This document shows positions 6,423-43,181 of a stretch of 64,000 nt of DNA, piece by piece (the stretch's first letter is position 1; the number at the start of each line of letters is the position of its first letter). A model generated the notes under the pieces. That model had not been told where the DNA came from, searched no databases, and saw nothing but the letters and a program-made list of their open reading frames with translations. This stretch comes from Candidatus Poribacteria bacterium. GTDB taxonomy: Bacteria > Poribacteria > WGA-4E > WGA-3G. The DNA lies in contig OY763324.1 of assembly GCA_963667365.1 (NCBI GenBank), positions 4,606,509 through 4,670,508 on the forward strand. Reading direction: 5' to 3'. The position numbers and the translations under genes are program-made.

Positions 6423-8100
6423 ACAGAAAATTCAAGCAATCTGCTTTTTAGATGTCGGGTGTTTCGCTTGGAAATACTTTGAAGAATACATCACCAGCGC
6501 ATTCGGTAAACATCACGAACCGATATTCACTGCTATTGGATTAGGTGAACGTGGCAAACGTGTCAATATACTTGCTCCACGCGGTAGTGCCAAAAGCACC
6601 TGCATGGCAATTATCTATCCATTGCATTGCATATTCTTTAAGTGGGCTTATGAAACACTCGGACTTGAACCTTTCAGTTTTATTGTTATTCTCTCTAAAT
6701 CACACACTATGGCAAAATCAAGAATACAAGACATCAAACGGAAGATAGAGACAGACACACGATTCAAACATCTCAAAGGTAAAGAAAGCTGGGGAGAAAC
6801 ACGTCTCATCACAAGCAACGATGTACTGCTCGTACCAAACTCACGCGGTGGACAGATACGCGGTTCTCTGTTCGGAGGACATAGACCCGACCTCATTATC
6901 TCGGATGACCTTGATGATCCTGAATCTGTGCGTAATCCTGATGTGCGTGCCAAAGACCAGTTGTGGTTTGACAGTGATTTAATGCGGGCTGGCAGTCTTG
7001 ACGGCACAACCAACTTCATCAATATAGACACGGTCAAGCATGCAGAAGCAACTGCAAACTTACTGCGGCAACGGGCAGGTTGGCGGACTCTCTTTTTTCG
7101 AGCAATAGAACATCCCGCTGATCTATGGCACCCAACAGCAGAGGAATCATGGAAACAATGGGAGAAGATATATACCAATCTGGAATTGGAAAATACAGAC
7201 CGTATAACACAAGCGGACGCATTCTACAATGAAAATAAGGAACAGATGACAGCAGGTGTCAAGGAATTGTGGCCGGAAGCAATTACATATCTGGATGTAC
7301 GGAAAGAAATCTGCGATGTTGGATACTTCCCTGTGCTGCGTGAATTACAGAATAGCACACACGACCCATCACAAGCACTCTTTGATATGGAGAACGCTAT
7401 GAGATTCACGTTGGCTAACAATGGCTTACTGCGTTCAGACAATCGTCTTGTCGCGTGGCAGGAGATCGCAGGTGTCACGATATTTTTGGACTGGGCAGGC
7501 GGTAAAGAAATCGCGGATAACTGCTTTGCTGCGTGTGTTGCAGTTGCTTGGGTGCCACTACCCGGCTCACGACAAGACCAAACTGATGCTATTATGGACG
7601 GTGTTCACGGCTACGTCATAGACGCGAACCTCGCACGTGTCGGTGCTACAGAACAGATGCGGATGATATTTGATATGATTGATAAGGTGCGTGCTGAGAT
7701 ACCGAAACGTGACATCAAAATCAGACTCGGTATTGAAGGCTTTGTTCAGGACACATGGAATGCACAAAAACAGGTGATTGAACAGGACTTTCGGAAAGAG
7801 AAGGACGCACGCAACGTTCGCGATTGTCCAACTATTGAATGGTTACCTCGACTCAAAAACAAATTTGATCGTATTGACGCATTACAACCGATAATCCGAA
7901 ACGGATGGCTCGCCTTCAGAAAAGGACTACACAACGAATTTTACAAGCAGATGAGTTTATATCCCACTGGGGACTTCCTTGACGCACCTGATGCGCTTGA
8001 AGGTGCATGTCAATTACGAGTGAGTCGTTTTGAATCTGAACGTAAACAACGTAAGGACGCTGCTCGCAGAAGAAATCAAAACTTCAAAGTACGCATTTAA
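6403..8100 (+). CDS. Phage terminase large subunit-like protein (ATPase plus RNaseH-fold nuclease). The ORF is open from 6232; likely start at 6403, 6376 or 6343.
   Basis: Walker A-like ILAPRGSAKST. Walker B / catalytic RPDLIISDDLDD. Nuclease-domain motifs IFLDWAGGKE and FLDAPDALEGA. Confidence 0.7.
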   Translation: MEQTTDKQKIQAICFLDVGCFAWKYFEEYITSAFGKHHEPIFTAIGLGERGKRVNILAPRGSAKSTCMAIIYPLHCIFFKWAYETLGLEPFSFIVILSKSHTMAKSRIQDIKRKIETDTRFKHLKGKESWGETRLITSNDVLLVPNSRGGQIRGSLFGGHRPDLIISDDLDDPESVRNPDVRAKDQLWFDSDLMRAGSLDGTTNFINIDTVKHAEATANLLRQRAGWRTLFFRAIEHPADLWHPTAEESWKQWEKIYTNLELENTDRITQADAFYNENKEQMTAGVKELWPEAITYLDVRKEICDVGYFPVLRELQNSTHDPSQALFDMENAMRFTLANNGLLRSDNRLVAWQEIAGVTIFLDWAGGKEIADNCFAACVAVAWVPLPGSRQDQTDAIMDGVHGYVIDANLARVGATEQMRMIFDMIDKVRAEIPKRDIKIRLGIEGFVQDTWNAQKQVIEQDFRKEKDARNVRDCPTIEWLPRLKNKFDRIDALQPIIRNGWLAFRKGLHNEFYKQMSLYPTGDFLDAPDALEGACQLRVSRFESERKQRKDAARRRNQNFKVRI

Positions 8101-25171: not shown

Positions 25172-25939
25172 TCATTTTTCGGTAAAAGCCTTAATTTCAT
25201 CTTGAGTTAGAATACGGAATTTAGTGTCTGAAGGTAGCGTATCATCTAATATACCTACTTCTATTTCTCCATCCTCCAATTCTGTCTTTATGATGTCATC
25301 TATCTGTTCGTCCGTTACTTCTGCATCATCTTCTGCTTCTTCAAAACGTTGACTTAATAATCTGCCAACTGCCCATGTTTTGAGTCCTAACTGTAACGCA
25401 ACGGTAAAACTTCGATCCGAATCAGTTTCTGTTGCCGCAAGGTAGTCTTGCATAGCATTTTCGATTTCCATGGTTCCACCAATCACTGCTGACTCATGGT
25501 GGATGTTGACATTTCCATCGTAGTTAATATGTGTAAATTGTGACGTAGCATCTCCATCGCCAATTTCAACAAGGAGCATTTTGATAATGTATGCCTCACC
25601 AGCAATTGCTTCAAATGCCTGTTTGAAGGTGTGTGCCAATACATAATGAGTTAATCGATGTAAATTCACATCTTCAGTGGCACTTTGAAATGCTTGGACG
25701 CTTGCAGTATCTGTAACAAGCATTCGAAGACGTTCAATGTCGGCAGGGTGACCGATAGCAGAGAGGGCAATTCTGTCATGAACTTCAAATATTTTCTGTG
25801 CACCTTTCGTAACAGTTAAAAGGAGGCTGCCTTTTTCATAAGGTAATCCGACGACAGGACTACCGAGTCTAAGTTGGTCTTCAATATAGTCGCGCCGGTC
25901 CTGAATTGCTTCAATCCAACGATACGGCAGATCACGCAT
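25172..25939 (-). CDS. prcA: Proteasome alpha subunit (ORF open from 25960; likely start MRDLPY at 25939, overlapping the prcB stop as TAATG)
   Basis: ...YRWIEAIQDRRDYIEDQLRLGSPVVGL alpha-type N-terminus. Acidic C-terminal tail. Confidence 0.8.
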   Translation of the reverse strand: MRDLPYRWIEAIQDRRDYIEDQLRLGSPVVGLPYEKGSLLLTVTKGAQKIFEVHDRIALSAIGHPADIERLRMLVTDTASVQAFQSATEDVNLHRLTHYVLAHTFKQAFEAIAGEAYIIKMLLVEIGDGDATSQFTHINYDGNVNIHHESAVIGGTMEIENAMQDYLAATETDSDRSFTVALQLGLKTWAVGRLLSQRFEEAEDDAEVTDEQIDDIIKTELEDGEIEVGILDDTLPSDTKFRILTQDEIKAFTEK

Positions 25940-26820
25940 TATGTAGCCTCCACATAACAATCTTTTAAGAATTCATCGGTGAGAGTTTCTACTCCCTGTT
26001 GTGTAATGGTTTTGACAGTAGGAAATATTTCGGCTTTTGCGTTGTATCCGCTGGTTGCCGCATCATATTCGCTTGCTGTATCAAGCAGTCGTAGGATAGT
26101 GATGGTTGCCAGTCGTTGATCCATATCCTCTAATCGAGTATCACCCCATCGATCAATATAACGTAATACCCCTCGGATCCATATTGAACCCGAACCTGTC
26201 GTAGCAAAGTCTACATTCTCAAAGTGTGCGCCGAGTGCATCGTAGAAGTAAATTTTCCCACCGTTCTCAGATTCATCTTTTTGTGGAGTATACAAAGCAA
26301 AGATTGGGATTACCGCGCCGATGCCTTGCATTGCCATTGGCAGATTATCACGTATAAGACGTGAAAGCGTTCGGAGTTTACCTTCAACACTCAATTCCTG
26401 AAGTTGGCTTCGTCTGAAATATTGGAATGAGTGTTTTAAGACACGTGCTATCTCATAAGCCATTGCAGGTGCACCAGAGATAGCAAGAACAGAATGCGTA
26501 TCAATTGGTAAGACTTTCTCAGCACGGTCATGAACAACGGAAGTTCCAGCAGTTGCGCGCCGATCTCCTGCGATGATAATTCCATCTTGATATCGCACAG
26601 CAACAACCGTCGTGGCTTCCGGTATTTCCAGTGTAGAGCCAGGAGTTTGTTCCCCTTGGGAGAGAAACTGATTAGTATCGCGCAACGGTTTTTTGCCGAC
26701 ACTAAAAAGGTCATGCTTTGCGATCATTTCAACTTCTGATGTGTTGAAGGCGACTTCAGTATCATCTGGCAAGGTGGCTGAATGTTTTAATAAACTGAGA
26801 AAGTCACCTTTATGGTTCAT
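25939..26820 (-). CDS. prcB: Proteasome beta subunit with propeptide
   Basis: Propeptide followed by ...ATTVVAVRYQDGIIIAGDRRAT (N-terminal Thr nucleophile after processing). Confidence 0.8.
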   Translation of the reverse strand: MNHKGDFLSLLKHSATLPDDTEVAFNTSEVEMIAKHDLFSVGKKPLRDTNQFLSQGEQTPGSTLEIPEATTVVAVRYQDGIIIAGDRRATAGTSVVHDRAEKVLPIDTHSVLAISGAPAMAYEIARVLKHSFQYFRRSQLQELSVEGKLRTLSRLIRDNLPMAMQGIGAVIPIFALYTPQKDESENGGKIYFYDALGAHFENVDFATTGSGSIWIRGVLRYIDRWGDTRLEDMDQRLATITILRLLDTASEYDAATSGYNAKAEIFPTVKTITQQGVETLTDEFLKDCYVEAT

Positions 26821-27017
26821 TATTCCCCCGTTCTTTGTCGGTACCGCCGGGATTGGTCTTTGTCAACGCGGCGCATACGTTTTAACAGTTCTTGTGTATC
26901 CGGTCTGTTGACATCGGGACGTTTCGGTGCGTTACTATCGTCTCCACCATCATCGGGTTCAACTGGTTTTACCGGTCTTTGTTTACGTTCGGGGAAAAAG
27001 GCAGTCTGGTCTTTCAT
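26820..27017 (-). CDS. pup: Pup-like small protein modifier (UBact-like): 65 aa, disordered, C-terminus ...RQRTGE
   Basis: Sits in the canonical pup slot between dop and prcB. Stop overlaps the prcB ATG by 1 nt (ATAATG). Low-complexity charged sequence ending in Gly-Glu. Confidence 0.6.
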   Translation of the reverse strand: MKDQTAFFPERKQRPVKPVEPDDGGDDSNAPKRPDVNRPDTQELLKRMRRVDKDQSRRYRQRTGE

Positions 27018-27071
27018 TTGAAATATCTCCTTAATCTACTATACGGAAGCAGTTTGCATTACAAACCGTGG

Positions 27072-28589
27072 TTAACTCAAGCCAAGTTTTTCAACAAGGG
27101 TTTGTGGGTTAGGGGACAGGTCAAGTGCTTCATTATATTTTCGTGCGATTTTAGCGTCTGCAAGAGAGTTCATATTGATTGTAACAGGTTTACCATTGAT
27201 GTCAAAGGTAATGCTATCCCATTGAACAGTTTTGATTGAATCTTCAAACTTATTGAGAGATTTTCCTCGAAAATAAGCACGTGTGTCCAATGGAGGCGTA
27301 TGTATAGCGTGTTGGATCTGTTCGTCTGTTATAACACGTTTCATTTGTAAACCATAAAATAAACCCTCATCCATATCAATGTTATGGTATTCCAAATCAA
27401 TGCTCTGTAGCCATGGATCATCCCATGCAATATCTTCAGATTCAACGAAGGTTTCCAACAACCACTTTTTTGCTACCCAATCAAGTCGATCAGTAAGCGT
27501 CATGGGATCAGTTTCAAGTGTGTTGAGTGTTTCTTCCCACTGTGTCAAGACCCAATCAGTATCTCCATTTTGATGAGCGAGATGTTTCTGGGCGAGTGCA
27601 AGATACTCACGTTGATGGTCAATTGCACTCATCATTTTACCATCAACTTTTTGTAACATCCAGCGATAGGTTTGGTCATGAGAAATCACTTTGATAGTAT
27701 CAATGGGGTTAGCAATTGCAATATTCTTAGGAATAAGCCGTTGTTCAATAAGATCAATAACAAGAGCAGTAGTTCCGACCTTGAGTGCCGTTGCGTATTC
27801 GGACATGTTTGCATCCCCGACGATTCCGTGAAGCCTTCGGTATGTCGCTGGGTCCGCGTGTGGTTCGTCACGGGTATTGACAATCGGACGTTTGTGCATC
27901 GTATCCACACTCGCTTCAACATGAAAGAAATCAGAACGTTGGGTGAGTTGGAAATGTCCTGGTGTTGCAAGTCCTGCCTCGGTTTCTATACCTATCTTAC
28001 CTGACCCAGCAAAAATTTGTCTTGTCACAAAAAACGGTAGGATACATGCCTTGAGATAATCAAACGGAACTTCTCGCGCCATAAGATAGTTATCGTGACA
28101 ACCGTAACTATGTCCATAAAAATCTGTATTGTTTTTATATAGGAGAACACGTTGTCCAAGTTCTTGACTACGTCGTTCAGCACATTTGTAAAGTATACGT
28201 TCACCTGCTTTGTCATGTGCCACGAGATCAAATAGACTTTGACATTCTGGTGTGGAATATTCCGGATGTGCATGGTCATTGTAAAGACGTGCACCGTTAA
28301 TTAGGATACGGTCACTCTTTATTTCCCGGAAGGATCGTCCTGGTTCTTTAGCAAATCGTTCGCGATCTCGTTTTTCTTCCTCAACTTCGTCTGGGTGGTT
28401 ATTTAGATGTTCTGCGCGGAATCCGCGTTCATCCCGAAAGGGGTCTTCACCATCATAGTCCCATTGAGGCAAGAAAGGATCACGCCGATAGTTTTTTATG
28501 AGTTCAATGGATTCCTTAACGGGATCAATCTGTTCTGCATTTTCAAGTGTGATTCCGTATTCGGTTTCGATTCCAAAAAGTCTGTGCAT
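27072..28589 (-). CDS. dop: Depupylase/deamidase Dop
   Basis: MHRLFGIETEYG N-terminus, plus a roughly 40-aa acidic Dop-loop insertion (...DYDGEDPFRDERGFRAEHLNNHPDEVEEEKRDRERF). Upstream of pup. Confidence 0.8.
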   Translation of the reverse strand: MHRLFGIETEYGITLENAEQIDPVKESIELIKNYRRDPFLPQWDYDGEDPFRDERGFRAEHLNNHPDEVEEEKRDRERFAKEPGRSFREIKSDRILINGARLYNDHAHPEYSTPECQSLFDLVAHDKAGERILYKCAERRSQELGQRVLLYKNNTDFYGHSYGCHDNYLMAREVPFDYLKACILPFFVTRQIFAGSGKIGIETEAGLATPGHFQLTQRSDFFHVEASVDTMHKRPIVNTRDEPHADPATYRRLHGIVGDANMSEYATALKVGTTALVIDLIEQRLIPKNIAIANPIDTIKVISHDQTYRWMLQKVDGKMMSAIDHQREYLALAQKHLAHQNGDTDWVLTQWEETLNTLETDPMTLTDRLDWVAKKWLLETFVESEDIAWDDPWLQSIDLEYHNIDMDEGLFYGLQMKRVITDEQIQHAIHTPPLDTRAYFRGKSLNKFEDSIKTVQWDSITFDINGKPVTINMNSLADAKIARKYNEALDLSPNPQTLVEKLGLS

Positions 28590-28650
28590 TATTTATGTCT
28601 TTCTACGGTATGTAAGACAGATGTATAAGGTATAAAATTAAAATAAAGAA

Positions 28651-30477
28651 CTATATCACCGGACTCGGTGTTTTTCGCTGTTCCCTCTTTTCAGATAGAA
28701 TAGGCGTGACTTTGACAACATTCACAGGATCGTAATCTAAGAGTTTTAACCAATCCTCTGTAGCTTCCGTCGGTGGGAAAATATCGTTTTCGCTAAATTC
28801 TGCATTGAGTGCATCTATCAGGTCATCTGAAGATATACCTGTCTGCGTTTCGGGAGAAGCAATAGCACGTTTCATAGCAGTTTCTTTTGCTCTTTGAACA
28901 ATAGACTCAATAATCGCACCACTGCAGAGATGACCACGGTAAAGTATGTCACGTCTTCCGCTGCGGAGAGCAACTTCAAGGAATCGATTTTCTGATGTCT
29001 CACGGAACATTTCATCTACAACTTGTGTAATCAAATTATCTATGACTTCCTTATCTGCGGTATCTCCTGTTTCAGATTCAATGGGTAGGTCTTGAGTAAG
29101 GTAGATACTAAATATATCCTTGGCTGCATCTTTATTGGGACGTGTGACTTTAATTTTTCTATCAATTCTTCCGGGACGCAAAATGGCAGGATCAATTAAG
29201 TCTGGTCGGTTTGTTGCCAGAATGATGACTACTTCCTGTAATGGCTCAATACCATCCATTTCTGCACAGAACATTGGCACGAGTGTGTTAGAAATACTGT
29301 GTGATCGCATAGCGCGACGTGTGCCTAAAATAGATTCCGCTTCATCAATAAAGACAAACGCAAGTTTACCCTCAGCACGTTTTTCGCGTGCAGAAAGAAA
29401 GATTTCTCTGACTTTCCGTTCCGATTCACCCAACCACATATTGAGTATTTCGGGACCTTTAATGTGAAGAAATGCTCCTTCAATCTCTTCACCAGACTCT
29501 GTCTTGAGACGTTCTGTTAAGTTATAGGCGGTGGCTTTTCCGATGAGTGTTTTACCACATCCTGGAGGACCGTGGAGGAGAAATCCTTTTGGGACAGTAT
29601 ATTGAAACTTTTTAAAGAGTTCAGGATGTAGAATCGGCTGCTCAATTGTATCTTTTATTCGTTGAATAGTTTCGTCAAGACCACCTATTTTCGACCATGG
29701 TATTGGTGGCACAGCTTCAAGTGCATAGTCGTTCCGTTCTTTTGAAGCAATACGTTCAAGTGCAACTTTTAAACTGGAATCAAGCCGTACTTCGTCACCC
29801 GTCTTTAACTTTACATCAACTAAGTCAGCAGCACGTTCAATTATAACAGATTGTAGACTCGGTTCTGACCCAACACGCAACCTGCCATCTGATAGTACAT
29901 CTGCAATTTTGGCAATTGGTCCCGATTCGTTATAACCAAGTTCACCAACTACGACGAAGGCTTCATTCAGAAGGACACTAACACCTGTTTTTAAGTTTTC
30001 TTTTTCCAGTTGTGGGTCAATATTGGCATAGTATTCTGACCCGCCTACGGTAACGCGCGCTGTATCGTCTTGAGGGACTGCAAGGAGAGTTCCAATGCGA
30101 TTTGCTGGTGCTGTCAGTTTTTCAATTTGTTCATCCATCTCATCGCGTATACGCTCTGCTTCCTGGACTATGGCTCGAACTCTTTGTCGGAACTCACCTT
30201 CATCGTTAATGATAGACCGACGTAATTCAATCAGCAAACGTCGTCTTCGGTCTTCCACAGGAGTTTCTGAGATGATTTGGTGAATCAGATGTAAGGAATA
30301 GCCGGAACTCGCCTCATCTCCAACGATCTCATCTTCTTCCGGTTCCAACTCCTCCTCGTCATCAAAAAAAAGTTTCTGATCGTCCGGACCTATGTCAGCA
30401 TTGCTACGGTTTTTCTTATCGTACATTTTGTACGTCTCCTCAGACAGAATGGGTGACTTTACGATAAAGTTTACCAC
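28651..30477 (-). CDS. mpa: Proteasome-associated AAA+ ATPase (Mpa/ARC). Likely start MYDKKNRSN at 30426.
   Basis: Coiled-coil N-terminus, OB region, AAA module GPPGCGKTL...VFIDEAESIL. First gene of the pup-proteasome operon. Confidence 0.85.
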   Translation of the reverse strand: MVNFIVKSPILSEETYKMYDKKNRSNADIGPDDQKLFFDDEEELEPEEDEIVGDEASSGYSLHLIHQIISETPVEDRRRRLLIELRRSIINDEGEFRQRVRAIVQEAERIRDEMDEQIEKLTAPANRIGTLLAVPQDDTARVTVGGSEYYANIDPQLEKENLKTGVSVLLNEAFVVVGELGYNESGPIAKIADVLSDGRLRVGSEPSLQSVIIERAADLVDVKLKTGDEVRLDSSLKVALERIASKERNDYALEAVPPIPWSKIGGLDETIQRIKDTIEQPILHPELFKKFQYTVPKGFLLHGPPGCGKTLIGKATAYNLTERLKTESGEEIEGAFLHIKGPEILNMWLGESERKVREIFLSAREKRAEGKLAFVFIDEAESILGTRRAMRSHSISNTLVPMFCAEMDGIEPLQEVVIILATNRPDLIDPAILRPGRIDRKIKVTRPNKDAAKDIFSIYLTQDLPIESETGDTADKEVIDNLITQVVDEMFRETSENRFLEVALRSGRRDILYRGHLCSGAIIESIVQRAKETAMKRAIASPETQTGISSDDLIDALNAEFSENDIFPPTEATEDWLKLLDYDPVNVVKVTPILSEKREQRKTPSPVI

Positions 30478-30678
30478 ATTTCTAACTTAATTTGCGAATC
30501 TTTTCACCATTTGCAATTATCTTAACAGATTAAGGTTTATAGATAGATATTGCTTAAATGTTGTCTTAATTGTGGTAATTGTTATTATTTTAGCATATTT
30601 TGCAGATAGTTGCAAGTTAAAATATAGTGAGTTTCAATAGCATTTTCTGTCTACTGTCATTTATATCTCTGATAGATT

Positions 30679-30700
30679 TAAACAAACTCGAGTTTGTTTA
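30679..30700. promoter_or_regulatory. Perfect 22-bp palindrome taaacaaactcgagtttgttta about 200 bp upstream of mpa
   Basis: 11-bp arms, no spacer. In the AT-rich leader of the proteasome operon. Confidence 0.4.
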
Positions 30701-31123
30701 GTTTACCATGCAATTTATTACAAGACAAGTAAATAAGGTATATTAAACTATGATCAGTAGATGCAGGTCTTTATGTGATTAGGGAATTGGATAGGCACAA
30801 TTAAACAACGAATCGGTAGAATATGGATTGAGTCAATGAACTCCGCTGAATTTTAATGTATTAATGAAACATTTAACGGAGATATCGTGTTTAGGTTAGT
30901 CGTATCTGTCAATGCTTATTCGGCACGTTCACCCGTAGTTCCAGAACATTGAATAAGACTTAGGTTGACATTAACAAATTGACTATCTATATTCTGACTT
31001 AGCAAGAAATTAAATCAAGCATTATCTAATGCAGAAATAGAATAAATATGAGTAGTAAAATATGAGACTATTAGAAGAAAATCAAGATTTGTTTGGGATG
31101 ATAATAATAGGTAGGTGTGTTGA

Positions 31124-34100
31124 TTAGGTAGACTTCGGTGACAGATTAGTTTGTTCGGAATTTTGACTCTTACCTATCGAATCCTTCGACGGAGTAGAAT
31201 AAACACCTCGTTGTACACGAACAATTTCTCCTCTTTCTATAAGACGTTTAAGTTCATTTTTTATTGCCTCCGGATTTCCTTCAATAGACTTAACAAATTC
31301 TGCAGTCTTTTTATCACTTTCATCAAGAAGAGATAATATTTGAGTTCTAAAGGGTACACGCAACGGTGCACCACCCCTAAGTTTTTTTAAATAACGGTTC
31401 GCTTGTCTTGAAGAACACCCCAAAATATGTTCAACTTTTTCTCGGTCAGATCTTCCAGTAAGATTATCCCGTTCCGTTTCAAAATGTTGACGGGTAGCAA
31501 TTACCTCAGGAAGTTTGTCAAGTCCACCAGCCACCTCAAAATCTTCCCAGTCAAATAGGAGTGTATTGACATTATCTGTAATACCAGGAAGTTCTATACC
31601 AGACATCAAAACGACAGTTTTATCAGATAGATGATACAATCCTATGCGATTGATAATTGATCTAAGTATAGCGGCAATATTCTGTTCATAAATAGATTGT
31701 AACCTATCATCCTTATAAAGTCCCGTCTCTAAATCCTTCTCATAAAGGAGTGGTTGTCTATCATTTCCAAAGTATTTTTGTGCTTGCCGCCAAATCATAC
31801 TTTGTGGTGGGTGGGGCGCACCGACAATCCAAATGACTTGAACTTTTTCAAGAATTGTCTCCCATCCTGTAACATTTATTGAATGACGTAGAAAATGTAC
31901 GTTGTCTGTGTCTACAATTTCTGACATCTGGTTGTATGTTGCAACCTCAGAGATAATTGCATGTGAAACACTCGTATCTTTGTTGATTTCAGCAAAGATT
32001 CCAGCAAGAAATCTGAGACCTGTTTCCCTAACTCCAACCACATCCCAGTTACCGTTGTATGCTAATATCGTTTCACGTGCATATATACCTGTCCGAATTT
32101 GAAAGATCTGATTTCCTTTATGAAACGATTGATTTTCAATGTGTCTTACCTCTGAGACTTCGTATGGAAAAGTCCTGCGGAGATGTTCACCCGTGATTGA
32201 TCTGGTTGTCACTAAAAGACGTTTGATGGTTGGATGTAGTGCTGGTGGCACCCAGAACTCAAAAACTTGTTTATCCCACTGAACTCGTGTATCTTCATCT
32301 CGAGTGTAATATTCAAAGAAACGAATTAATTCATGCCATTTCGTCCAGTTAGGATTAGAACAGACAGTCGGAAAATCGTTTATATCCTCAACTGTTTCTG
32401 TTTTTAAAATACCAAGTTGGATTGCTTTTTCCATATCCACAGGTATTTTCATATATTCGTTTACAATATAAGATTTAGGTAGGAAAAAAGACAGATTTTT
32501 CGCCTTTAGAATATCTGCCGCCTTATCATCTATCGGAATATATGCTTCCACACCTCCCTCAAACTCAATTGTAAATTGTGCTAATTCTTGTGCTGTATCA
32601 GGATCAACATATCCCCGCTCAATGACCTTGGATTGCACATTTATTGCACACATTTGTTTTATGATCTCTTTTTCCTGCAGTCGAAATGCGTGTACCACTG
32701 AACGGATACGTCGAACGGAATCATCATCAAACCTTCCATTGAATTCTAAGGCATTTAGTAAGAAGTTGGCAAAGTTACCTAAAGAGTCTCCACGCCAGTT
32801 CTGTATCCATTCCTTCAATAAATCCACTGACAATTCACACCTGATAAAGTTTGCTTGAGAATTCAATACTCCCGAAATATAAGTTCGTTTTGAATTGTCC
32901 ATTTGTCCAAAGATTTCTGTCATCACTGCTGAGTATTGTGGATTATAAAATAGTCCCGGAAAAGACATAATTATAGTATTCTCTTTTTGTAATTTTTCAT
33001 ACTGAGCCAAAAACCCGTGTTGTTGACATTCCGTGTAGACAGGACACTGTGGACAGATACTTTTGTTGGGATCTCCCCCTTTTTTTTCCAGCGTGTCGCA
33101 ACGGTCTGCGTCTATGCAGACATTTCCAAATTTAAATGTGTTAGCTATTCGTTCATCAAGAGGTATATCTTTTACCTGTTCCCATAGGTAGTTCCGTTGT
33201 TTCAATATCCCAAAAGATGTTAGGTTATATTTATGTGAAAGTTGATCTACTACTGTAGCAAATGTATGTTTAGGCACATTCAAACATAGAGGGGTTTTAT
33301 TGTGGAGAAAAGAGGTAATATCACAGATTCCATCCATATCTGTATCAATTATCAGTCCGAGAACGCGTGTCCCTCCCTCAAAAATCTTCTTCAACTGGTT
33401 AACATCTTTTTTAAATGTTTTATAGGACTGTATCAAATGTTTCTTTTCACCCAGTATTGGAGCAGGACGTTTTATCTTCAATGGACTAATTTTTCCTTGC
33501 CGAACACTCAGGACATCTTCTGATAACAGGGGACCGGTAGTAGGTAGTATTCCGGTGTCATTCCAGACTTCTGTTATTGGAGTAGTTTCAATTGGTAAAC
33601 CGAAGCCGGGAGCAGATGCGCGTATCCACACTGTTCCTTCGCGCTCCCATAGTAATACATCCGTGTTACGATCTTTATTTTCTTGGTATGTCCACTGGTG
33701 AAATTCGTTATTTTCTCTTATATAAGAAAAACCACGCCGAATAAATGCTTCTCTTGCGAGATCAAGCCTATGTGTCCCAAGTGATAATGGCACAGCAGTA
33801 GGTGTTTTATTATCATCATCTTTTATTAGTAGGATGGCTGGTTCATCTTCTTCAGTTGTGTCGGGTTCATGAAGAATATCGCGTAGGATATTAATTGGTG
33901 CAAAGAGAATATCGCTTGAAATAATAGGTGGGTCCAAAAGATTTCCCATGAGAATCTCATAACGCGCATCCCAACGACTGTGTCCTCGATCTCCCAAAAT
34001 TTCAAGGTACACGGACCTTTTATCTGAAGTGTGTTTACAAATATACGACCTTTCCGTTTCAGTTTCTGAATGCAGATAATCTGGTATTCGGCAGGAAAAT

Positions 34101-34588
34101 CGTATCCCACCAGATTTTGTCAATGTTAAGAGTGGATTCACGACATAATTAACCAGTGCTTCGATACAGGTGATAAATGCATCTGGCGCGGCACATAGGG
34201 CTTCATAGTTAAAATTGATGTCATGCCATCGTGCCCCGTAGCGTTCGGAAGGAATACCGGTAAACACTTGAATTCCCCAAGATTCACTCCACCGACGGGG
34301 ATCCCAACTTTCTGTTACCTGACGAGTTGTAAATCGCTGATTCCATTTATTCATATCTAAAGTTCTGGGAGCTCTGTCGTTTTCTGGAGCACGTCCTATC
34401 GGCATAAAAGATATGTGTGCATCCTCAAGTGTATGGAGCGGTACAGATTGTCCGTACGCACAATGGACAGTATACTCATACGAAATACCTTTATTGTATG
34501 CAGCGGGTTTTATTGATGTCTGACGTTGCCGAAGTGGATTATTGTGTCGTTCGTGACAACGTTCAATAAGTCTTATTAAATTTTTCAT
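31124..34588 (-). CDS. Giant orphan protein (1154 aa): possible AEP primase-polymerase-like N-terminus, Cys-rich Zn-ribbon, C-terminal winged HTH (AbiEi-like)
   Basis: ...GIQVFTGIPSERYGARWHDINF, ...LTKSGGIRFSCRIP and ...EILGDRGH loosely resemble PrimPol motifs I-III. CDADRCDTLEKKGGDPNKSICPQCPVYTEC. C-terminal ...RLIERGEIVRVQRGVYSTP. No Walker A motif. Sits in an AT-rich island. Confidence 0.5.
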   Translation of the reverse strand: MKNLIRLIERCHERHNNPLRQRQTSIKPAAYNKGISYEYTVHCAYGQSVPLHTLEDAHISFMPIGRAPENDRAPRTLDMNKWNQRFTTRQVTESWDPRRWSESWGIQVFTGIPSERYGARWHDINFNYEALCAAPDAFITCIEALVNYVVNPLLTLTKSGGIRFSCRIPDYLHSETETERSYICKHTSDKRSVYLEILGDRGHSRWDARYEILMGNLLDPPIISSDILFAPINILRDILHEPDTTEEDEPAILLIKDDDNKTPTAVPLSLGTHRLDLAREAFIRRGFSYIRENNEFHQWTYQENKDRNTDVLLWEREGTVWIRASAPGFGLPIETTPITEVWNDTGILPTTGPLLSEDVLSVRQGKISPLKIKRPAPILGEKKHLIQSYKTFKKDVNQLKKIFEGGTRVLGLIIDTDMDGICDITSFLHNKTPLCLNVPKHTFATVVDQLSHKYNLTSFGILKQRNYLWEQVKDIPLDERIANTFKFGNVCIDADRCDTLEKKGGDPNKSICPQCPVYTECQQHGFLAQYEKLQKENTIIMSFPGLFYNPQYSAVMTEIFGQMDNSKRTYISGVLNSQANFIRCELSVDLLKEWIQNWRGDSLGNFANFLLNALEFNGRFDDDSVRRIRSVVHAFRLQEKEIIKQMCAINVQSKVIERGYVDPDTAQELAQFTIEFEGGVEAYIPIDDKAADILKAKNLSFFLPKSYIVNEYMKIPVDMEKAIQLGILKTETVEDINDFPTVCSNPNWTKWHELIRFFEYYTRDEDTRVQWDKQVFEFWVPPALHPTIKRLLVTTRSITGEHLRRTFPYEVSEVRHIENQSFHKGNQIFQIRTGIYARETILAYNGNWDVVGVRETGLRFLAGIFAEINKDTSVSHAIISEVATYNQMSEIVDTDNVHFLRHSINVTGWETILEKVQVIWIVGAPHPPQSMIWRQAQKYFGNDRQPLLYEKDLETGLYKDDRLQSIYEQNIAAILRSIINRIGLYHLSDKTVVLMSGIELPGITDNVNTLLFDWEDFEVAGGLDKLPEVIATRQHFETERDNLTGRSDREKVEHILGCSSRQANRYLKKLRGGAPLRVPFRTQILSLLDESDKKTAEFVKSIEGNPEAIKNELKRLIERGEIVRVQRGVYSTPSKDSIGKSQNSEQTNLSPKST

Positions 34589-34785
34589 AGTGTCATATTT
34601 GATTATATTAGTTTAAATTATGTGTCGGTGGAGAATTTCGATTCTGATATTTAATTATGAAAGCGGATTGTTTTGCTAAAGTATCACAGCATTACATTAT
34701 TTGTCAAGTATTATTAAATAACCCAAGTTGCTACTTATTGGATTTTCAACGTTATCGTGCTCTTAACATGGGATATTTAATCTTT

Positions 34786-34860
34786 TGCTCCATCGGAGGG
34801 ATATGTTTATAGCACGCATATACCGTCATTCTTCCGCTCCATCGGAGCGATATGTGGAAA
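34786..34860. repeat. Two copies of a roughly 22-bp direct repeat (gctccatcggagggatatgt / gctccatcggagcgatatgt), each with a ctcc..ggag hairpin, 200-270 bp upstream of the giant ORF
   Basis: Copies at 34787-34807 and 34837-34857. Confidence 0.55.
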
Positions 34861-35190
34861 TCGTTACCGTAATGGATAGATTTTTGTCTTAGATTTACCG
34901 TGAGTTAGGTATAAGCAACTTTGGGAATCGGTAAATATGCACTGCAAAATGACTTTGTTATAGTGCCTGTTAAATCTTGTAAAGTTTTGAGTCAATCCTG
35001 ATAAAATTAGTCATAAATAGCCTATAAACCCAATGGTGATAAGGGATTGTAGCAAATTCCCAAATTCCTACAATTCCGATTGACTCAAAAAACTCAAAAG
35101 TATGACATTGTAAATTCGGCAAATAAATATGAAATCCTGCATGTCTGCTAAACCGAACTCACGTTAAATATAGTGATTCCACAATTAATT

Positions 35191-35220
35191 TTGACAAGAC
35201 CTACTTTATTATAGTATAAT
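35191..35220 (+). promoter_or_regulatory. Candidate sigma70 promoter of the rplM-rpsI operon (TTGACA-18-TATAAT)
   Basis: TTGACA at 35191-35196, TATAAT at 35215-35220, about 55 bp upstream of rplM. Confidence 0.45.
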
Positions 35221-35275
35221 ACATTAATGCATTTGAGTATATAACTAATGGAAATGTCAACATTTACCAAAAAGG

Positions 35276-37584: not shown

Positions 37585-37657
37585 GAGCCGTTAGCTCAGC
37601 AGGTAGAGCATCTGACTTTTAATCAGGTGGTCACAGGTTCGATTCCTGTACGGCTCA
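37585..37657 (+). tRNA. tRNA-Lys (anticodon TTT)
   Basis: Cloverleaf: acceptor gagccgt/acggctc, anticodon loop cTTTTaa, T-arm GGTTCGATTCC. CCA not encoded. Confidence 0.85.
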
Positions 37658-37668
37658 CCTTAATATGC

Positions 37669-37743
37669 GCCCCCGTCGTCTAGCCTGGCCAAGGACACCG
37701 CCCTTTCACGGCGGCGACACGAGTTCAAATCTCGTCGGGGGTA
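37669..37743 (+). tRNA. tRNA-Glu (anticodon TTC)
   Basis: gcccccgTCGTCTAGCCTGGCCAAGGACACCGCCCTTTCACGGCGG...GAGTTCAAATCTCGTcgggggtA, close to E. coli tRNA-Glu. Confidence 0.85.
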
Positions 37744-38335: not shown

Positions 38336-40744
38336 TTATGATAATCCAAGATGTGTCGCAACCTGTTCGTCCAATTTCGCAGCCCATTCTTCAGGTGAAT
38401 GCACCTTTCCATATCGTGACATCACAATCTTTCCCTGTTTATCAATTAACACGAATGCAGGAACTTTCTGCCATGGATTTATACCAAATAGCTTGAAAAG
38501 TGGACCGTTGTAATCATCACCATCAAGTATATGTTGTCCTTTGCAGTTTTCTTCATGGATACGATCTCTTAATTCATCGTTTGATCCACCATAAATGCAA
38601 ATACTGATAATATCAAATCCTCTTGTATGATATTTATCATATATTGTATAAATATTCGATTGTAATTCACCCGAGGAACAAAAATATAGCAGTACAACAT
38701 TTCCTCGCTGTGTTTCAGGACAAACATGCTCTCCATATACATCAACAGCTGAGAAATCAGGAACCATGCTACCTACCCGTGATGTTTCCGTCCAACTCAC
38801 GATTTGTCCTAATCTATCTTGTCTATTGTCAACAGAAATTATTTTACCTTCTCGGTCAATGAGCCACTGAGAAGGAACAGAGTTTATACCAAAATACTTT
38901 GCAACCTTAGTTTTCCAGACTTCTCCATCAAAGATGTGGGACCACGGAATTTCATGTTCCTCAATATATTCACGTAGTTCTGCTTCGTTTTCATCCAGGC
39001 TTACACCGATGACTTCAAATCCGGTCTTGTGATGGGTCTCGTATACTTTTTTGACATACGGTATTTCTGGTGTGCAGAAACGACACCATTTAGAACAGAA
39101 ATTGAGAAGTACCATTTTCCCTTGATAGTCTGAGAACGATATCGGTTTACCCTCAAGTGTCACAGCGGTAAAGTCAGGTAGTTGTCGTCCAACCCATGCT
39201 GTTTGTGCCCATCTGTATTCAGAGTGGGGTTCCCATGGGTATTTTTGTGCTAATTCGGTTTCCCCCAAAGTTTCATAAATATCACCGAGTCCGCGTAATG
39301 CGTACCATTCGTCAGGTTCGTGTGTCAGCCGTTCCTGAAATACCTGTAACATCTGAACTATCAAAGTTTTACACTTACCTATCAATTCAGAGTTACCATC
39401 AGGATTTTTCATAAGATACCGATAGATGTGGCACGGAGTTCTGCCTAATTCATTATATAGTCTTGTTAACCAGTGATGCAAATCAGATTCGTCTGGATGT
39501 TGTGCCCTTCGATACAATTCTTCAAGTGCTAATAACGTCTTTTCATATAATGGGTCATCACGATTATATAAACTTTTGGCATACAGACTAATTGTGTGAT
39601 AGCAAACTTCTGCATCGTTAGATAACAATTCCATTGCTTGTTCAAGGTATGGAACATCACTGTCTCCTACAATGATTGACAACACCTTCGCTGCTGCACC
39701 GTTGTTCGGCATCTTTTCATACACATCTTCAGTGAATTCTTGGAGTTCCAACAGCATTGCTTGGGGTAACCGCGGAACGTACTCAGCGAGTTCCGATGGT
39801 AATGTTGTACGTCCGTCAATAACTCCATCTTCAAGTTTCATTTTAAAATACTTCAGAAGTTGTTCTTGAATTTTCTGAGTAAGTCTCCATCTGCGGTCTG
39901 AAAGTCCATGGTTTTCAAGAGAATCGAGAAAAGTATCCCAAAAATTAGGGTTTTCGTGTGATAGATCGTCTGTTTTCAATTGGGATTCTGATTCTTGATG
40001 TAATTCTTTTTGAAATGCTGCTTGTTCCTCTATAAGCAAGTCTATACATTTCTTAACCAAGACATTACTTTTCTCTATTTTTCTTTGACACATCTTAAAT
40101 AGAGTTGGATTTTCTGCATCTACCTTGAGTTCCTTAATAATTTCCTTGAGTTTAGCATATACAGCATAAGGCGTTTTCAATCCTTCATAGGCAATCTTAG
40201 CATCCTGATACCGAACGGTTGCCCCCTCTTGTTTTGCCCACGTGTATAGGTTTTCGAGTGAAGTTAGGACTCTTTCTTGCCAGTCTATATCCGATTCATA
40301 AATAACATAACAACATCGGTATCTGTCTATTACAAGTAAATTCATTCCTGGATCTTCAGGTACCAACCGCATACCGTTTTCAATATGCGATAGATATTGA
40401 GAGTCACCTTCCGCACATGCAACAATTGCTAAAATAATTGCCGCAGCACCGTTATTAGGATCTGTTTTTAAAAAACTTTCTGCTAACACTCTTAGTTTTG
40501 GCAACATCTCTTTTTGAAATCGCCAAAAGTAATCGTGCAACCCAGGTGGAAGTGCAGTTTGTCCATCCGTGACACCTACTTCAATCTTTTCTTTAAGGTA
40601 GGTAAGGAGATTTTCCTGCATCTCCTCATCCAACTCTAATTCACCAGTACCTGCAGAAAACCCGAAGTTGCGGAGAGAGTTCAAGAAAGTATACCAGAAA
40701 TCTGTGGAATCAAATTTCTCTATCATATTTGTTTTCCTATTCAC
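38336..40744 (-). CDS. Large cytoplasmic protein, paralog A: duplicated novel N-terminal module plus two thioredoxin-fold (TlpA/redoxin-like) domains
   Basis: Repeated module KFDSTDFWYTFLNSL...LELDEEMQENLL / NPNFWDTFLDSLENHG. Redoxin domain with WCRFC (CxxC). Second redoxin-like domain has a single Cys. Confidence 0.5.
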   Translation of the reverse strand: MNRKTNMIEKFDSTDFWYTFLNSLRNFGFSAGTGELELDEEMQENLLTYLKEKIEVGVTDGQTALPPGLHDYFWRFQKEMLPKLRVLAESFLKTDPNNGAAAIILAIVACAEGDSQYLSHIENGMRLVPEDPGMNLLVIDRYRCCYVIYESDIDWQERVLTSLENLYTWAKQEGATVRYQDAKIAYEGLKTPYAVYAKLKEIIKELKVDAENPTLFKMCQRKIEKSNVLVKKCIDLLIEEQAAFQKELHQESESQLKTDDLSHENPNFWDTFLDSLENHGLSDRRWRLTQKIQEQLLKYFKMKLEDGVIDGRTTLPSELAEYVPRLPQAMLLELQEFTEDVYEKMPNNGAAAKVLSIIVGDSDVPYLEQAMELLSNDAEVCYHTISLYAKSLYNRDDPLYEKTLLALEELYRRAQHPDESDLHHWLTRLYNELGRTPCHIYRYLMKNPDGNSELIGKCKTLIVQMLQVFQERLTHEPDEWYALRGLGDIYETLGETELAQKYPWEPHSEYRWAQTAWVGRQLPDFTAVTLEGKPISFSDYQGKMVLLNFCSKWCRFCTPEIPYVKKVYETHHKTGFEVIGVSLDENEAELREYIEEHEIPWSHIFDGEVWKTKVAKYFGINSVPSQWLIDREGKIISVDNRQDRLGQIVSWTETSRVGSMVPDFSAVDVYGEHVCPETQRGNVVLLYFCSSGELQSNIYTIYDKYHTRGFDIISICIYGGSNDELRDRIHEENCKGQHILDGDDYNGPLFKLFGINPWQKVPAFVLIDKQGKIVMSRYGKVHSPEEWAAKLDEQVATHLGLS

Positions 40745-40769: not shown

Positions 40770-43181
40770 CTATATGTGCGCTGACACAAGCTCATCTATC
40801 CTCACAGCCCACGCTTCAAGTGAATGTACCTTCTCATAACGTGCATCAATGACCTTACCATCAGCATCAATCAGAATGAAGGCAGGTAGTTTAACTTTTC
40901 GAAATCCTGAACTCGATCCAAATCCGGACTGCTCCACCAGAGAACATTGCAGTCCATCTTCATCAGCATAGACATAGTGTCCTTTATGGTTTTCTTTGCG
41001 TACTACTTTGTGCAAAGCTTCTTCGTCCCTCCAGCCACCAATATTGAAACCAATTACCTCAAATCCATTGTTGTGATGCTTCTTGTATAGTGTGTCAATG
41101 AGTGCGAGTTCAGGTTCACGATTTATGTAACCAAAATGGACTAAAACAACTTTTCCTCGAAATGCAGCTGCAGATATAGAATTGCCATCTATATCAACTG
41201 CAGTAAAATCGGGAATAACGTTGCCAATACGTGTAGTTTCTGTCCACTTCACAAGTTGTCCAAGATGTTCTCCTCTTGTATGAACAGAAAGAATCGTTCC
41301 ATCCCTGTCAATTAACCACTGTGAAGGAACTATGTAAATAGAGAAAAACTGTGCAAGTTCGCTTTTCCATCCTTTTCCATCAAATATGTGGTGCCACGGG
41401 ATCTCATGTTCCTCTATATATTCGCTTAGTTCCTTTTCGTTCTCATCCAAACTCACACCAATTACCTCTAATCCATTGTGGTGATGTTCCTCATATACCT
41501 GTTTGAGATACGGAATTTCTGAATCACAGAAACCACACCACTTCGCACAAAAATTTAGCACCAACATTTTACCACGGTAATCTGAAACAGATATAGGAGT
41601 GCCATCAATAGCAACCGTTGAAAAATTGGGAATTTGCTTTCCAACCCATGCTGCCTGATCCCATCTGTATTCAGGATGGGGTTCCCAAGGGTATTCTTGT
41701 GCTAATACAGTTTCACCTAATACTTCATAGACATCCCCAAGTCCGCGTAATGCATACCAATCGTCTGGTTCGACATTAAGTTGATGCTTAAATGCATGTT
41801 GCATTTGCTCAATCAAGGTTTGACACCTTTCAATCAGTTCTGCATTTGCTTCAGGATTTTTCATCAGATTCCGATATATATGGCATGGTGTTCTACCTAC
41901 GTTCCTATACAGTTTTGACATCCAACTTGTTAATTTCGCTTCATCTTTGTGCTCCGCTCTTTCAAACATTCTCTCAAGAGCAGTAAGTGTTAGTTTGAAC
42001 AATGGATCGTAATGTTTATCATAATGTCTAAGTGCATAAAAGCAGGTTTCAGCATCTTTGGGTGCCAACATCATAGATTGTTCAAGGAATATAAGGTCAC
42101 TATCCGAATTTACATTTCGGATACGTTTACCCTCCCATACTATGCTTGCTAATATTTTCATTGCAGCACCGTTTTTTGGTTGTGTTTCAAGCACCTCTTC
42201 AGCGAATTCACGGAGTTCCAAATGCATCACTTCTGGAAATTCTGAAATATGTTCATGAAGATCCGTTGGTAATATTGTTCTTCCGTCAACCACACCTGCT
42301 GCAATCGTAGCTTCAAGGTAATCAAGAAGTTGCTCTTGGTCCTTCTCAGTAAGTCTTCTTGGAGGTGCATTTTTACGATTTTCAAGCGATTTTAGAAATG
42401 CATCCCATATATCGGTATGATCAGATATTTCATCAACTAAATCTTGTTGGTCCTCCGATTGTTGTCCTGTATACTTCCGAAATGCAGCCTTCTCCATGGG
42501 AACCAAATCTCGACACTTCTTTATTAGGGAATTACATATCTCAATTTCCGTACTACTTTTATCAGAACCTGATGAATTTTGTAGGTCTCTGAGTCTGTCT
42601 TTGAGTTGTTTATAAACTGTATAAGGCGTAACTCTATGCTGCAAATAGAATGACCTAGCCTCCTGATAACGAGCAGTGTCCTCTTGTTGTTTAGCCCATG
42701 TATATAAGTTTTCAAGTGACCTAACAACTTTCTCGTGTCGCTCAAATTCAACGTTAAAATATTGACTTTTTCTGTATTTATCAATCACAACCAAATTCAT
42801 ACACGGATCATTCGGTACCAACGCCATTGACTCATCCACCTGTGGATCATTATTAGCATCCCAGTCTGAAATTTCTACAATTGTGCGAAGTAAGGATGCT
42901 GTGCCGTTTTGTGGATCAGATTGAAGAAAACTATCAGTTAATTCCCGTGTTTTTGGTAACATCTCTTTTGGAATCCGCCAATAGTAATTATGTAGTCCAG
43001 GAGGAAGTGCTGTTTCACCATTCGTAACATCTTCATCAATCTTTTCTTTGAGATAGGCAAGGAATTTATCCTGCATCTCCTCATCCATCTCCAATTCACC
43101 TATTCCATAAGAGAGTCCTTCGTTATATAGAGAGTTAATGAATGTATACCAGAATTCTGTTGAGTCATATTTATCAGCCAT
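40770..43181 (-). CDS. Paralog B of the 38336..40744 protein (803 aa, same architecture, CxxC = WCGFC)
   Basis: Collinear similarity over the full length (MADKYDSTEFWYTFINSL..., ...FCAKWCGFCDSEIPYLKQVYEEH...). Confidence 0.5.
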   Translation of the reverse strand: MADKYDSTEFWYTFINSLYNEGLSYGIGELEMDEEMQDKFLAYLKEKIDEDVTNGETALPPGLHNYYWRIPKEMLPKTRELTDSFLQSDPQNGTASLLRTIVEISDWDANNDPQVDESMALVPNDPCMNLVVIDKYRKSQYFNVEFERHEKVVRSLENLYTWAKQQEDTARYQEARSFYLQHRVTPYTVYKQLKDRLRDLQNSSGSDKSSTEIEICNSLIKKCRDLVPMEKAAFRKYTGQQSEDQQDLVDEISDHTDIWDAFLKSLENRKNAPPRRLTEKDQEQLLDYLEATIAAGVVDGRTILPTDLHEHISEFPEVMHLELREFAEEVLETQPKNGAAMKILASIVWEGKRIRNVNSDSDLIFLEQSMMLAPKDAETCFYALRHYDKHYDPLFKLTLTALERMFERAEHKDEAKLTSWMSKLYRNVGRTPCHIYRNLMKNPEANAELIERCQTLIEQMQHAFKHQLNVEPDDWYALRGLGDVYEVLGETVLAQEYPWEPHPEYRWDQAAWVGKQIPNFSTVAIDGTPISVSDYRGKMLVLNFCAKWCGFCDSEIPYLKQVYEEHHHNGLEVIGVSLDENEKELSEYIEEHEIPWHHIFDGKGWKSELAQFFSIYIVPSQWLIDRDGTILSVHTRGEHLGQLVKWTETTRIGNVIPDFTAVDIDGNSISAAAFRGKVVLVHFGYINREPELALIDTLYKKHHNNGFEVIGFNIGGWRDEEALHKVVRKENHKGHYVYADEDGLQCSLVEQSGFGSSSGFRKVKLPAFILIDADGKVIDARYEKVHSLEAWAVRIDELVSAHI

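Follow-up and report, generated by a model that had tools for sequence, protein, structure and literature searches.

What is the large protein encoded alone between ribosomal and proteasome genes in a member of the Candidatus Poribacteria, from what did it descend, and what can it still do? We address this question for a stretch of 64,000 nucleotides of a Candidatus Poribacteria bacterium (assembly GCA_963667365.1, contig OY763324.1, positions 4,606,509 to 4,670,508 of the forward strand), called the window throughout and numbered from its first letter, in which one open reading frame (ORF) for a protein of 1154 amino acids (aa) stands between two long gene-free flanks. The protein is a member of a multi-copy, uncharacterised family recovered only from sponge-associated Poribacteria, and its gene is held in place by conserved synteny and purifying selection. 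In a structural model it combines the fold of an archaeo-eukaryotic primase (AEP) with that of an XPD-type helicase from which both ATPase motifs have gone. On balance, we think it probable that the window protein is a paralogue of a mobile-element primase-helicase, domesticated and now binding DNA without acting as a motor.

A multi-copy family recovered from Poribacteria

The initial annotation of this DNA, made from its letters alone, had described the protein as an orphan. Among 5.8 billion proteins searched, 1249 are homologues of it at E<=1e-3, and the best 120 of these are mostly full-length and share 49-68% identity with it; the few that carry names are all called 'hypothetical protein [Candidatus Poribacteria bacterium]'. 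Relatives are encoded at 371 loci in species-representative genomes, and 80 of these were retained. Every one of the 80 belongs to Candidatus Poribacteria, many genomes contributing several, and OY282374.1 encodes at least nine family members, including a tandem array of four. The expansion must be old, because the paralogues are only about 50% identical to one another.

The position of the window copy is itself inherited. Pfam searches on the neighbours place a UBact-proteasome operon on one side of the ORF and ribosomal proteins L13 (rplM) and S9 (rpsI) and adenylosuccinate synthetase (PurA) on the other, as the initial annotation had largely recognised, and orthologues at L003-L005, at 63% identity, occupy the interval between purA-rpsI-rplM and an Mpa-like ATPase gene in an exact match to this arrangement. 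The ratio of nonsynonymous to synonymous substitution rates (dN/dS) in this orthologue lineage is 0.19-0.21, unsaturated pairs included. Conserved synteny of the orthologues together with a dN/dS of about 0.2 identifies a vertically inherited, selected chromosomal gene.

The description of a single ORF with about 650-700 bp of non-coding DNA on either side was accurate: the gene-free flanks measure 646 bp (30478-31123, downstream of the gene) and 687 bp (34589-35275, upstream of it) and contain no other ORF of at least 60 aa. The compositionally distinct, AT-rich island drawn around the gene dissolves on inspection. GC content is 0.392 in the ORF and averages 0.399 over the window; AT-richness is confined to the intergenic DNA (0.32 and 0.30), and the whole 4.8-kb block, at 0.369, is matched or exceeded in AT-richness by 5.7% of equal-sized windows. 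In codon usage the ORF ranks second among 37 genes in closeness to the window average; its GC content at third codon positions falls in the 19th percentile, and its tetranucleotide distance of 0.166 is within about 1 SD of that of other chunks (0.148 +/- 0.018). The ORF has native composition and is not a compositional island; the impression of an orphan in an AT-rich island is an artefact of reading a single window without databases.

Nor does the locus carry the marks of an integrated mobile element or genomic island, whether sought in composition, an integrase, flanking repeats or tRNA genes, or variable presence. No sign of an integrase, an attachment site or terminal inverted repeats is seen at the ORF locus, no direct or inverted terminal repeats flank the ORF, and the nearest tRNA genes (37585-37743) lie 3 kb away beyond purA, none being adjacent. 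Long upstream spacers are a property of the family as a whole: across 70 loci the upstream gene-free gap has a median of 547 nt and the remaining gaps of these loci one of 81 nt (Mann-Whitney p = 2e-26), and 60% versus 7% exceed 500 nt. The distant relatives P0183 and P0156, introduced below, likewise have upstream gaps of 500-620 nt. Among paralogues, no conservation of this upstream DNA and no shared iterons or operator-like motif were seen, and beyond -300 it is unconserved even between close orthologues.

The initial annotation had offered, among other candidates, a replication-initiator relic of an integrated element. The gene would then be the decaying remnant of an element that had integrated recently, and the AT-rich flanks what is left of the origin or ends of that element. 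Such a remnant would account for the long upstream gaps and for a primase-helicase-winged helix architecture typical of mobile-element Rep proteins, but it is contradicted by an intact 1154-codon ORF with a dN/dS of about 0.2, by orthologues occupying the same locus in other species, by native codon usage and k-mers, by the missing integrase, terminal repeats and adjacent tRNA gene, and by distal flanks that neither are conserved between close orthologues nor share iterons. We consider this explanation largely refuted and extremely improbable; of the earlier idea only a distant ancestry in such an element stands.

Domain architecture and lost motifs

The architecture was read from an AlphaFold2 model computed from 79 homologues (mean predicted local distance difference test score, pLDDT, 79; predicted template modelling score 0.75). 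The features of the gene and the encoded protein, in order from the N-terminus, are as follows.

31124-34588, minus strand: the 1154-aa ORF, intact and single, with an ATG start (ORF list)
33869-34588, minus strand: predicted AEP (prim-pol)-fold domain, aa 1 to about 240
33554-33862, minus strand: acidic disordered linker (aa 243-264) and small alpha/beta domain (aa 270-345), from pLDDT and secondary structure of the AlphaFold2 model
31559-33406, minus strand: predicted XPD/Rad3/DinG-like superfamily 2 (SF2) helicase-fold core, aa ~395-1010, catalytically degenerate
33326-33352, minus strand: Walker A (motif I) remnant IIDTDMDGI, aa 413-421; intact paralogues read (I)AETGAGK[S/T/N]
33026-33118, minus strand: cysteine cluster C491-x5-C497-x14-C512-x2-C515-x5-C521, between motifs I and II
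32861-32884, minus strand: Walker B (motif II) remnant TYISGVLN, the Walker B position being aa 572-575; intact paralogues read LCI[IV]DE[VA]
31535-31555, minus strand: near-invariant FDWEDFE motif where the core meets the C-terminal DNA-binding module
31184-31456, minus strand: predicted C-terminal DNA-binding module, comprising a helix-turn-helix (HTH, aa ~1045-1075) and an AbiEi-like winged helix (wHTH, aa ~1078-1135)

In this model the N-terminal domain adopts the mixed alpha/beta fold of AEPs, and the core is built of two RecA-like motor domains with the overall fold of XPD. Foldseek comparisons with the PDB retrieve XPD (E 1.5e-10) and DinG (E 2e-7), and comparisons with viral models retrieve phage bifunctional primase/polymerases (E 6e-8 to 3e-5) as well as giant-virus proteins labelled 'replication origin-binding protein', 'helicase-primase' and 'Primase C-terminal 2'. 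At the level of sequence, detection is limited to the last winged helix, which matches Pfam AbiEi_4 with 21.6 bits (cut-off 25) and PADLOC AbiEi over 40 aa (E 2e-7), in agreement with the AbiEi-like C-terminus proposed at the outset. Searches of the full protein against Pfam, NCBIfam, PHROGs and PADLOC find nothing besides this wHTH; the PDB, searched by sequence with the protein itself and with its full and N-terminal profiles, yields nothing at all, and no Pfam, NCBIfam or PDB sequence match assigns the window protein to DEAD_2 or Helicase_C_2.

Residue conservation was assessed in 89 family members derived from the loci and in a separate set of 79 database members. All of the motifs quoted in the initial annotation are present, namely WHDIN (aa 121-125), SGGIRF (159-164), GDRGH (199-203), the cysteine cluster and IVRVQRGVY. 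Motif I of the AEP domain, ARWHDINF (aa 119-126), supplies D123 and N125, that is, DxN instead of DxD/E, and hence one rather than two metal-binding acids. Asparagine holds the second acidic position throughout the orthologue lineage of the window gene (WHDIN), while this position varies in the family: D in 34, N in 20, E in 16 and H in 16 of the 89 members, with Q or I besides, and D, N, E, H, V or I in the 79. Motif II reads SGG[LI]R family-wide, with an invariant Arg163 in place of the usual His. Replacement of this His by Lys is a hallmark of BT4734-like AEPs (PMC11724360); Arg163 is basic as that Lys is, and Arg itself is undocumented at this position. Motif III, RWDARYE, places W206-D207 on a beta-strand, its register being taken from the model and not from a residue-level superposition; D207 and E211 are each present in 87 of the 89 members. 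As a set, D123, R163, R167, D207, R209 and E211 are essentially invariant across the 89, ATPase-dead members included. The earlier view of an AEP-like N-terminus with substitutions at canonical acidic and His positions holds for the predicted fold and for both substitutions; at the sequence level no link to any Pfam AEP family was found.

These residues bear directly on whether the protein is still an active enzyme, either a repair or damage-tolerance primase-polymerase or a nucleotide-independent DNA-processing enzyme that uses its helicase-like body as a DNA clamp. The invariance of the six charged residues, even in members with dead ATPases, speaks for such an enzyme, as does the versatility of AEPs as repair polymerases (PMC11724360), but mutation of motif I acidic residues abolishes polymerase activity in characterised AEPs (PMC11724360), and at the second of these positions the whole window lineage carries Asn and the family at large is variable; moreover, the sequence matches no catalytic AEP family. 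Polymerisation is unlikely because motif I reads DxN, and we judge an active enzyme of either kind distinctly improbable.

The helicase-like core tells a similar story. The initial annotation had correctly reported that no helicase P-loop is present, Walker A having decayed to IIDTDMDGI, a segment that hhalign matches to ADTGVGKD of P0183; what it missed is that Walker A and B persist in paralogues and distant relatives. Both motifs are intact in 15 of the 89 members, neither is intact in 57, the window copy among them, and 17 retain one only; Walker A is gone throughout the window orthologue lineage. With the lysine of Walker A and the acidic residues of Walker B gone, the window protein cannot be a translocating helicase, and as judged from its motifs we infer that this copy has neither ATPase nor polymerase activity.

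The cysteine cluster, by comparison with these motifs, is kept. C491, C512, C515 and C521 (C-x20-C-x2-C-x5-C) are the probable ligands; they are conserved in 86 of the 89 members, the other three being 976-aa paralogues devoid of the whole segment, and C497 is replaced in three members. The spacing, which had been given as C-x3-C, is in fact C-x5-C...C-x2-C-x5-C. The ligand spacing equals the 4Fe-4S signature of WhiB-type proteins, and a weak Pfam WhiB match covers aa 508-526. XPD and DinG carry a 4Fe-4S domain inserted between helicase motifs I and II, the very position of the cluster in this protein. What was first called a zinc ribbon is this cysteine cluster, which is probably a 4Fe-4S site, or else binds Zn. 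Conserved as well is FDWEDFE, in which F, D, W and D are invariant and E1015 is found in 87 of the 89 members.

Ancestry and probable role

The origin of this architecture is suggested by more distant proteins. A profile search of 1.84 billion cluster representatives yielded 636 clusters, among them proteins of 1,150-1,450 aa that align to the core only. Two of these, P0183 and P0209, match Pfam BT4734-like_N (E about 1e-21) and PriCT_2 (1e-12 to 1e-16) at their N-termini and end in an AbiEi_4-like C-terminus, and the family aligns to P0183 in hhalign with a probability of 100% over 753 columns; P0183 also has a weak Pfam match to ResIII/DEAD. Among 20 distant relatives checked, 16 carry Walker A (xTGxGK[T/D/N]), C-x19/20-C-x2-C-x5-C and Walker B ([IVM]DE) in that order. 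The small alpha/beta domain of the window protein (aa 270-345) holds the position taken by PriCT-2 in P0183 and P0209.

BT4734-like proteins are listed as an AEP family, and mobile-element primases usually run from AEP through PriCT or a Zn-binding domain and a helicase to a winged helix (PMC5862659); examples include pRN1 ORF904 and phage or giant-virus prim-pols fused to a remote SF2 or UL9-like 'origin-binding' helicase (Kazlauskas et al. 2018, PMC5862659). The family shares with these primase-helicases the order AEP fold, helicase fold, C-terminal winged helix and, in its distant relatives, Pfam AEP plus PriCT-2 domains. It differs from them in that its helicase is XPD/DinG-like with a cysteine cluster and not SF3, MCM or DUF3987, in that it is chromosomal, vertical, multi-paralogous, recovered only from Poribacteria and outside any mobile-element context, and, for the window copy, in the loss of Walker A/B and the DxN of motif I. 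With BT4734-like AEPs (VirE_N or VirEN, PF08800) it has in common a basic residue in motif II, Lys in theirs (PMC11724360) and Arg163 here, and relatives that share its core have genuine PF08800 and PF08707 at the same N-terminal position; unlike them, the window protein has no PF08800 match at its N-terminus, an alpha/beta domain where PriCT-2 would be, and a degenerate motif I.

The XPD/Rad3/DinG 4Fe-4S SF2 helicases, which we take to include the DinG of type IV-A CRISPR systems, resemble the family in the four-cysteine cluster between motifs I and II and in the TGxGK and [IV]DE of its relatives. They differ from it in that no Pfam model of theirs matches the family, in a sequence identity of 8-11%, in its WhiB-like cysteine spacing, in its fusion to an AEP fold and a wHTH, and in the absence from the window copy of ATPase motifs that 15 of 89 paralogues and 16 of the 20 distant relatives retain. 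In the literature that we searched, no AEP joined to an XPD/DinG-type cluster-bearing helicase is described, and searches on Poribacteria primase, on PriCT-2 with AbiEi and on AEP with DinG or XPD found nothing describing the family. Unusual here are this combination, its fixation and expansion across a phylum, and the presence of pseudoenzyme members; mobile-element primase-helicases as an overall kind are known.

We therefore place at the root of the family, in the account that we favour, an ancestor that would have joined a BT4734-like AEP primase-polymerase with PriCT to an XPD/DinG-type SF2 helicase, a four-cysteine and probably 4Fe-4S cluster, and an HTH/winged helix of the origin-binding type. 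Within Poribacteria it would have diversified into several ancient paralogues per genome, some keeping Walker A/B and many without it, the window copy descending through the lineage that was passed on at the site flanked by rplM and the UBact-proteasome operon. This copy no longer has the lysine of Walker A, the two acidic residues of Walker B or the second acid of AEP motif I; under purifying selection it keeps the metal cluster, the fold, FDWEDFE and both DNA-binding helices. A non-motor DNA-binding protein is the most economical reading, because selection retains the fold, the metal cluster, FDWEDFE and the HTH and wHTH. The wHTH pair would recognise duplex DNA, and the dead XPD-like core with its metal-cluster domain may hold single-stranded or forked DNA or serve as an interaction scaffold. 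The protein could act alone as a regulator or sensor or, probably, together with the ATPase-competent paralogues of the same genome or in their regulation, in some DNA transaction particular to Poribacteria; candidates are replication or repair, keeping related elements in check, and the regulation of transcription. The mobile-element ancestry, the mode of DNA binding and the cooperation with paralogues are what we infer from these comparisons.

Several results weigh against this account. The N-terminal domain has no sequence-level link to any Pfam AEP family, its assignment being by fold: the N-terminal profile retrieves only the same family, the window protein has no match to PF08800 or PF08707 at E<=1, alignment of that profile by hhalign with the N-termini of P0183 and P0209 yields a probability of 0.3%, and modelling the N-terminus by itself gave a poor structure (pLDDT 48.6), which was set aside. 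The AEP domain may retain some metal-dependent chemistry, D123, D207 and E211 being invariant. A mobile-element origin finds no echo in searches for the family by tblastn in plasmid and phage collections or in IMG/VR, where two distant relatives also had no matches. The neighbourhood of P0156 holds small unannotated ORFs, STIV_B116-like and ribbon-helix-helix genes and transposases, and that of P0183 an AAA_25 gene and further unannotated ORFs; these contexts look mobile-element-like and are suggestive only. Gene context does not constrain the cellular role, since each paralogue lineage has different, ordinary chromosomal neighbours, and cooperation with active paralogues is pure conjecture on our part.

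The DNA upstream of the gene raises the further question of whether the protein is mainly a transcription factor, that is, a wHTH repressor or activator that controls its own gene and uses its large N-terminal body as a sensor, for example of redox state through a WhiB-like Fe-S cluster. Two features are relevant.

34680-34707, minus strand: likely promoter TTGACA-16-(TG)GATACT, from a consensus scan only, ~90 nt upstream of the ATG
34781-34806 and 34830-34855, unstranded: two copies of a 26-nt direct repeat, 49 nt apart, upstream of the promoter

The promoter has counterparts in the paralogues (TTGACT-N17-TATAAT, 100-270 nt upstream), and the upstream k-mers that they share amount to just this sigma-70-type promoter. 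Each repeat copy contains CTCCATCGGAG, a palindrome CTCC-ATC-GGAG, and the pair, in the DNA that separates the promoter of the family gene from the divergent one of rplM, is possibly a local operator. It has exactly two matches in the 64 kb and is absent upstream of all other related loci, the orthologous ones included. The palindromes and repeats reported earlier for both flanks reduce to this one pair, the downstream flank containing no repeats above threshold. The flanks were also considered as the site of a hidden RNA, of iterons or of a CRISPR-like array, and the idea was rejected: repeats are minimal, the upstream DNA is unconserved and only the promoter is shared, and Rfam searches of 29.5-36.5 kb gave only a sub-threshold chance match to a snoRNA.

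A strong predicted promoter of its own, the palindrome-bearing repeats, two C-terminal HTH/wHTH units, and the WhiB-like cysteine spacing with its weak WhiB match would all suit a transcription factor, but the repeat is unique to the window, no operator-like motif is common to the paralogues, and the conserved primase and helicase folds, at ~1,000 aa, are far larger than known sensors require. We regard regulation of transcription as the main function as fairly unlikely. It overlaps with and does not exclude the reading as a domesticated, non-motor DNA-binding paralogue, with which the earlier suggestion of a novel regulator is likewise compatible.

A single-protein defence system had also been proposed. 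The protein would in that case act against phages or plasmids, sensing invading DNA through its wHTH and helicase-like core and blocking replication of that DNA, singly or as part of a team of paralogues. The resemblance to AbiEi that speaks for this idea is real for the last ~40 aa (…GEIVRVQRGVY), which resemble the N-terminal winged helix of AbiEi_4, but it ends there: only the wHTH matches, below the Pfam threshold, the NCBIfam TAA_AbiEi score is 11.5 against a cut-off of 150 bits, the AbiEi C-terminal domain is absent, and the length of the window protein is about five times that of AbiEi, the antitoxin and regulator of the AbiE type IV toxin-antitoxin system. AbiEi proteins are about 200-300 aa in size. 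The window locus offers no AbiEii-like nucleotidyltransferase as partner, the neighbours being the proteasomal ATPase and L13. BT4734-like AEPs do occur in defence loci (PMC11724360), and paralogue expansion, diversification and tandem arrays would be in keeping with defence, as would an SNF2-like gene that adjoins other paralogues at 19 loci and matches helicase parts of ZorD, DpdE and DrmD; yet this neighbour is convergent and matches generic helicase regions only. The window copy itself is vertically inherited between ribosomal and proteasome genes in a synteny kept at 63% identity, has native composition, evolves at a dN/dS of about 0.2 with no sign of an arms race, and has lost both ATPase motifs. 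With no specific support for a single-protein defence system, we consider defence quite unlikely.

Sister lineages, neighbouring genes and significance

Several paralogue lineages have features of their own. Tandem arrays at L049, L055 and L076 contain up to four members, two truncated (~770 aa) and two full-length, and the 976-aa subtype that lacks the entire cysteine-cluster segment is the downstream member at L023, L029 and L042. At 19 loci (L001, 13426-21468; for example L011-L016, L018, L020 and L023-L025) another paralogue lineage is followed by a convergent conserved gene set consisting of an SNF2-family helicase (~600 aa) and a VWA protein (324 aa), to which about nine of the loci add a ~1365-aa protein without a Pfam match and L001 a 296-aa protein. 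PADLOC finds generic SNF2 similarity only (ZorD, DpdE, DrmD helicase parts) and no defined system in these SNF2/VWA neighbours. In one genome, perhaps by coincidence, about 7 kb separate dnaA from P0088, a paralogue with intact ATPase motifs at L089 (20700-22049).

One sister lineage has a conserved in-frame TGA (CGC TGA AAA CC) at 12 loci in at least nine genomes (L007-L010, L013, L017, L019, L036, L045 and L046, with the TGA at about 7366-7368 in locus coordinates, and L022 and L038). In the alignment the site corresponds to a residue near aa 462 of the window protein, or about 33203-33205 in the window, within motor domain 1 between Walker A and the cysteine cluster, and the TGA stands exactly at the Trp position of other paralogues (..R-W-K-P-R..). 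A perfect 7-bp hairpin (UACCUGU-GGGA-GCAGGU[G/A]) follows 13 nt downstream of it (mean folding free energy -9.5 vs -5.1), and its synonymous codons are fixed in the TGA lineage alone. Gene callers list the 455-aa N-terminal half as a protein of its own, for example P0139 (83 members). Because the stop falls inside motor domain 1, its position favours read-through or recoding of UGA, as Trp or selenocysteine, over two separate proteins.

The genes on the proteasomal side of the window copy were assigned by Pfam.

25172-30477: UBact-proteasome operon, including proteasome subunit(s)
26820-27017: UBact (PF20513, not Pup)
27072-28589: Pup-ligase homologue
28651-30477: proteasomal AAA ATPase with OB domains (Mpa-like)

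A bacterial UBact-proteasome system thus adjoins the family gene in a Poribacteria-type genome. Elsewhere in the window, the cumulative GC skew reaches a minimum near 48 kb (about 47.7-48.7 kb), and large ORFs lie mostly on the minus strand from 14 to 48 kb and mostly on the plus strand from 48.7 to 64 kb, which may reflect a replication-related switch or operon layout. Two adjacent minus-strand ORFs, 38336-40744 (802 aa) and 40770-43181 (803 aa), are apparent tandem paralogues, the first with thioredoxin-like CxxC motifs (..WCRFC..).

A more far-reaching proposal, which we put forward tentatively and hold to be fairly unlikely, is that the phylum captured a mobile-element replication protein made of an AEP, an Fe-S XPD-like helicase and an origin-binding wHTH and now maintains ~5-10 standing paralogues of it. 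Competent and dead members would together form an undescribed DNA-transaction or anti-replicon machine, with pseudo-helicases acting, for instance, as decoys or adaptors that recognise the replication origins of related elements. Expression of one lineage would depend on programmed recoding of UGA, and the 0.5-0.9 kb of AT-rich gene-free DNA beside each copy would possibly be a functional partner, an origin-like or silenced region, and not a spacer.

These results supply a domain-level description for a family of large proteins that has over 1,200 members and no name. Its members form a natural series from ATPase-intact to ATPase-dead, mostly cluster-retaining proteins, which should be useful for understanding the role of pseudo-helicases and of Fe-S domains without a motor, and the family is an apparent signature of the Poribacteria, uncultivated symbionts of sponges.

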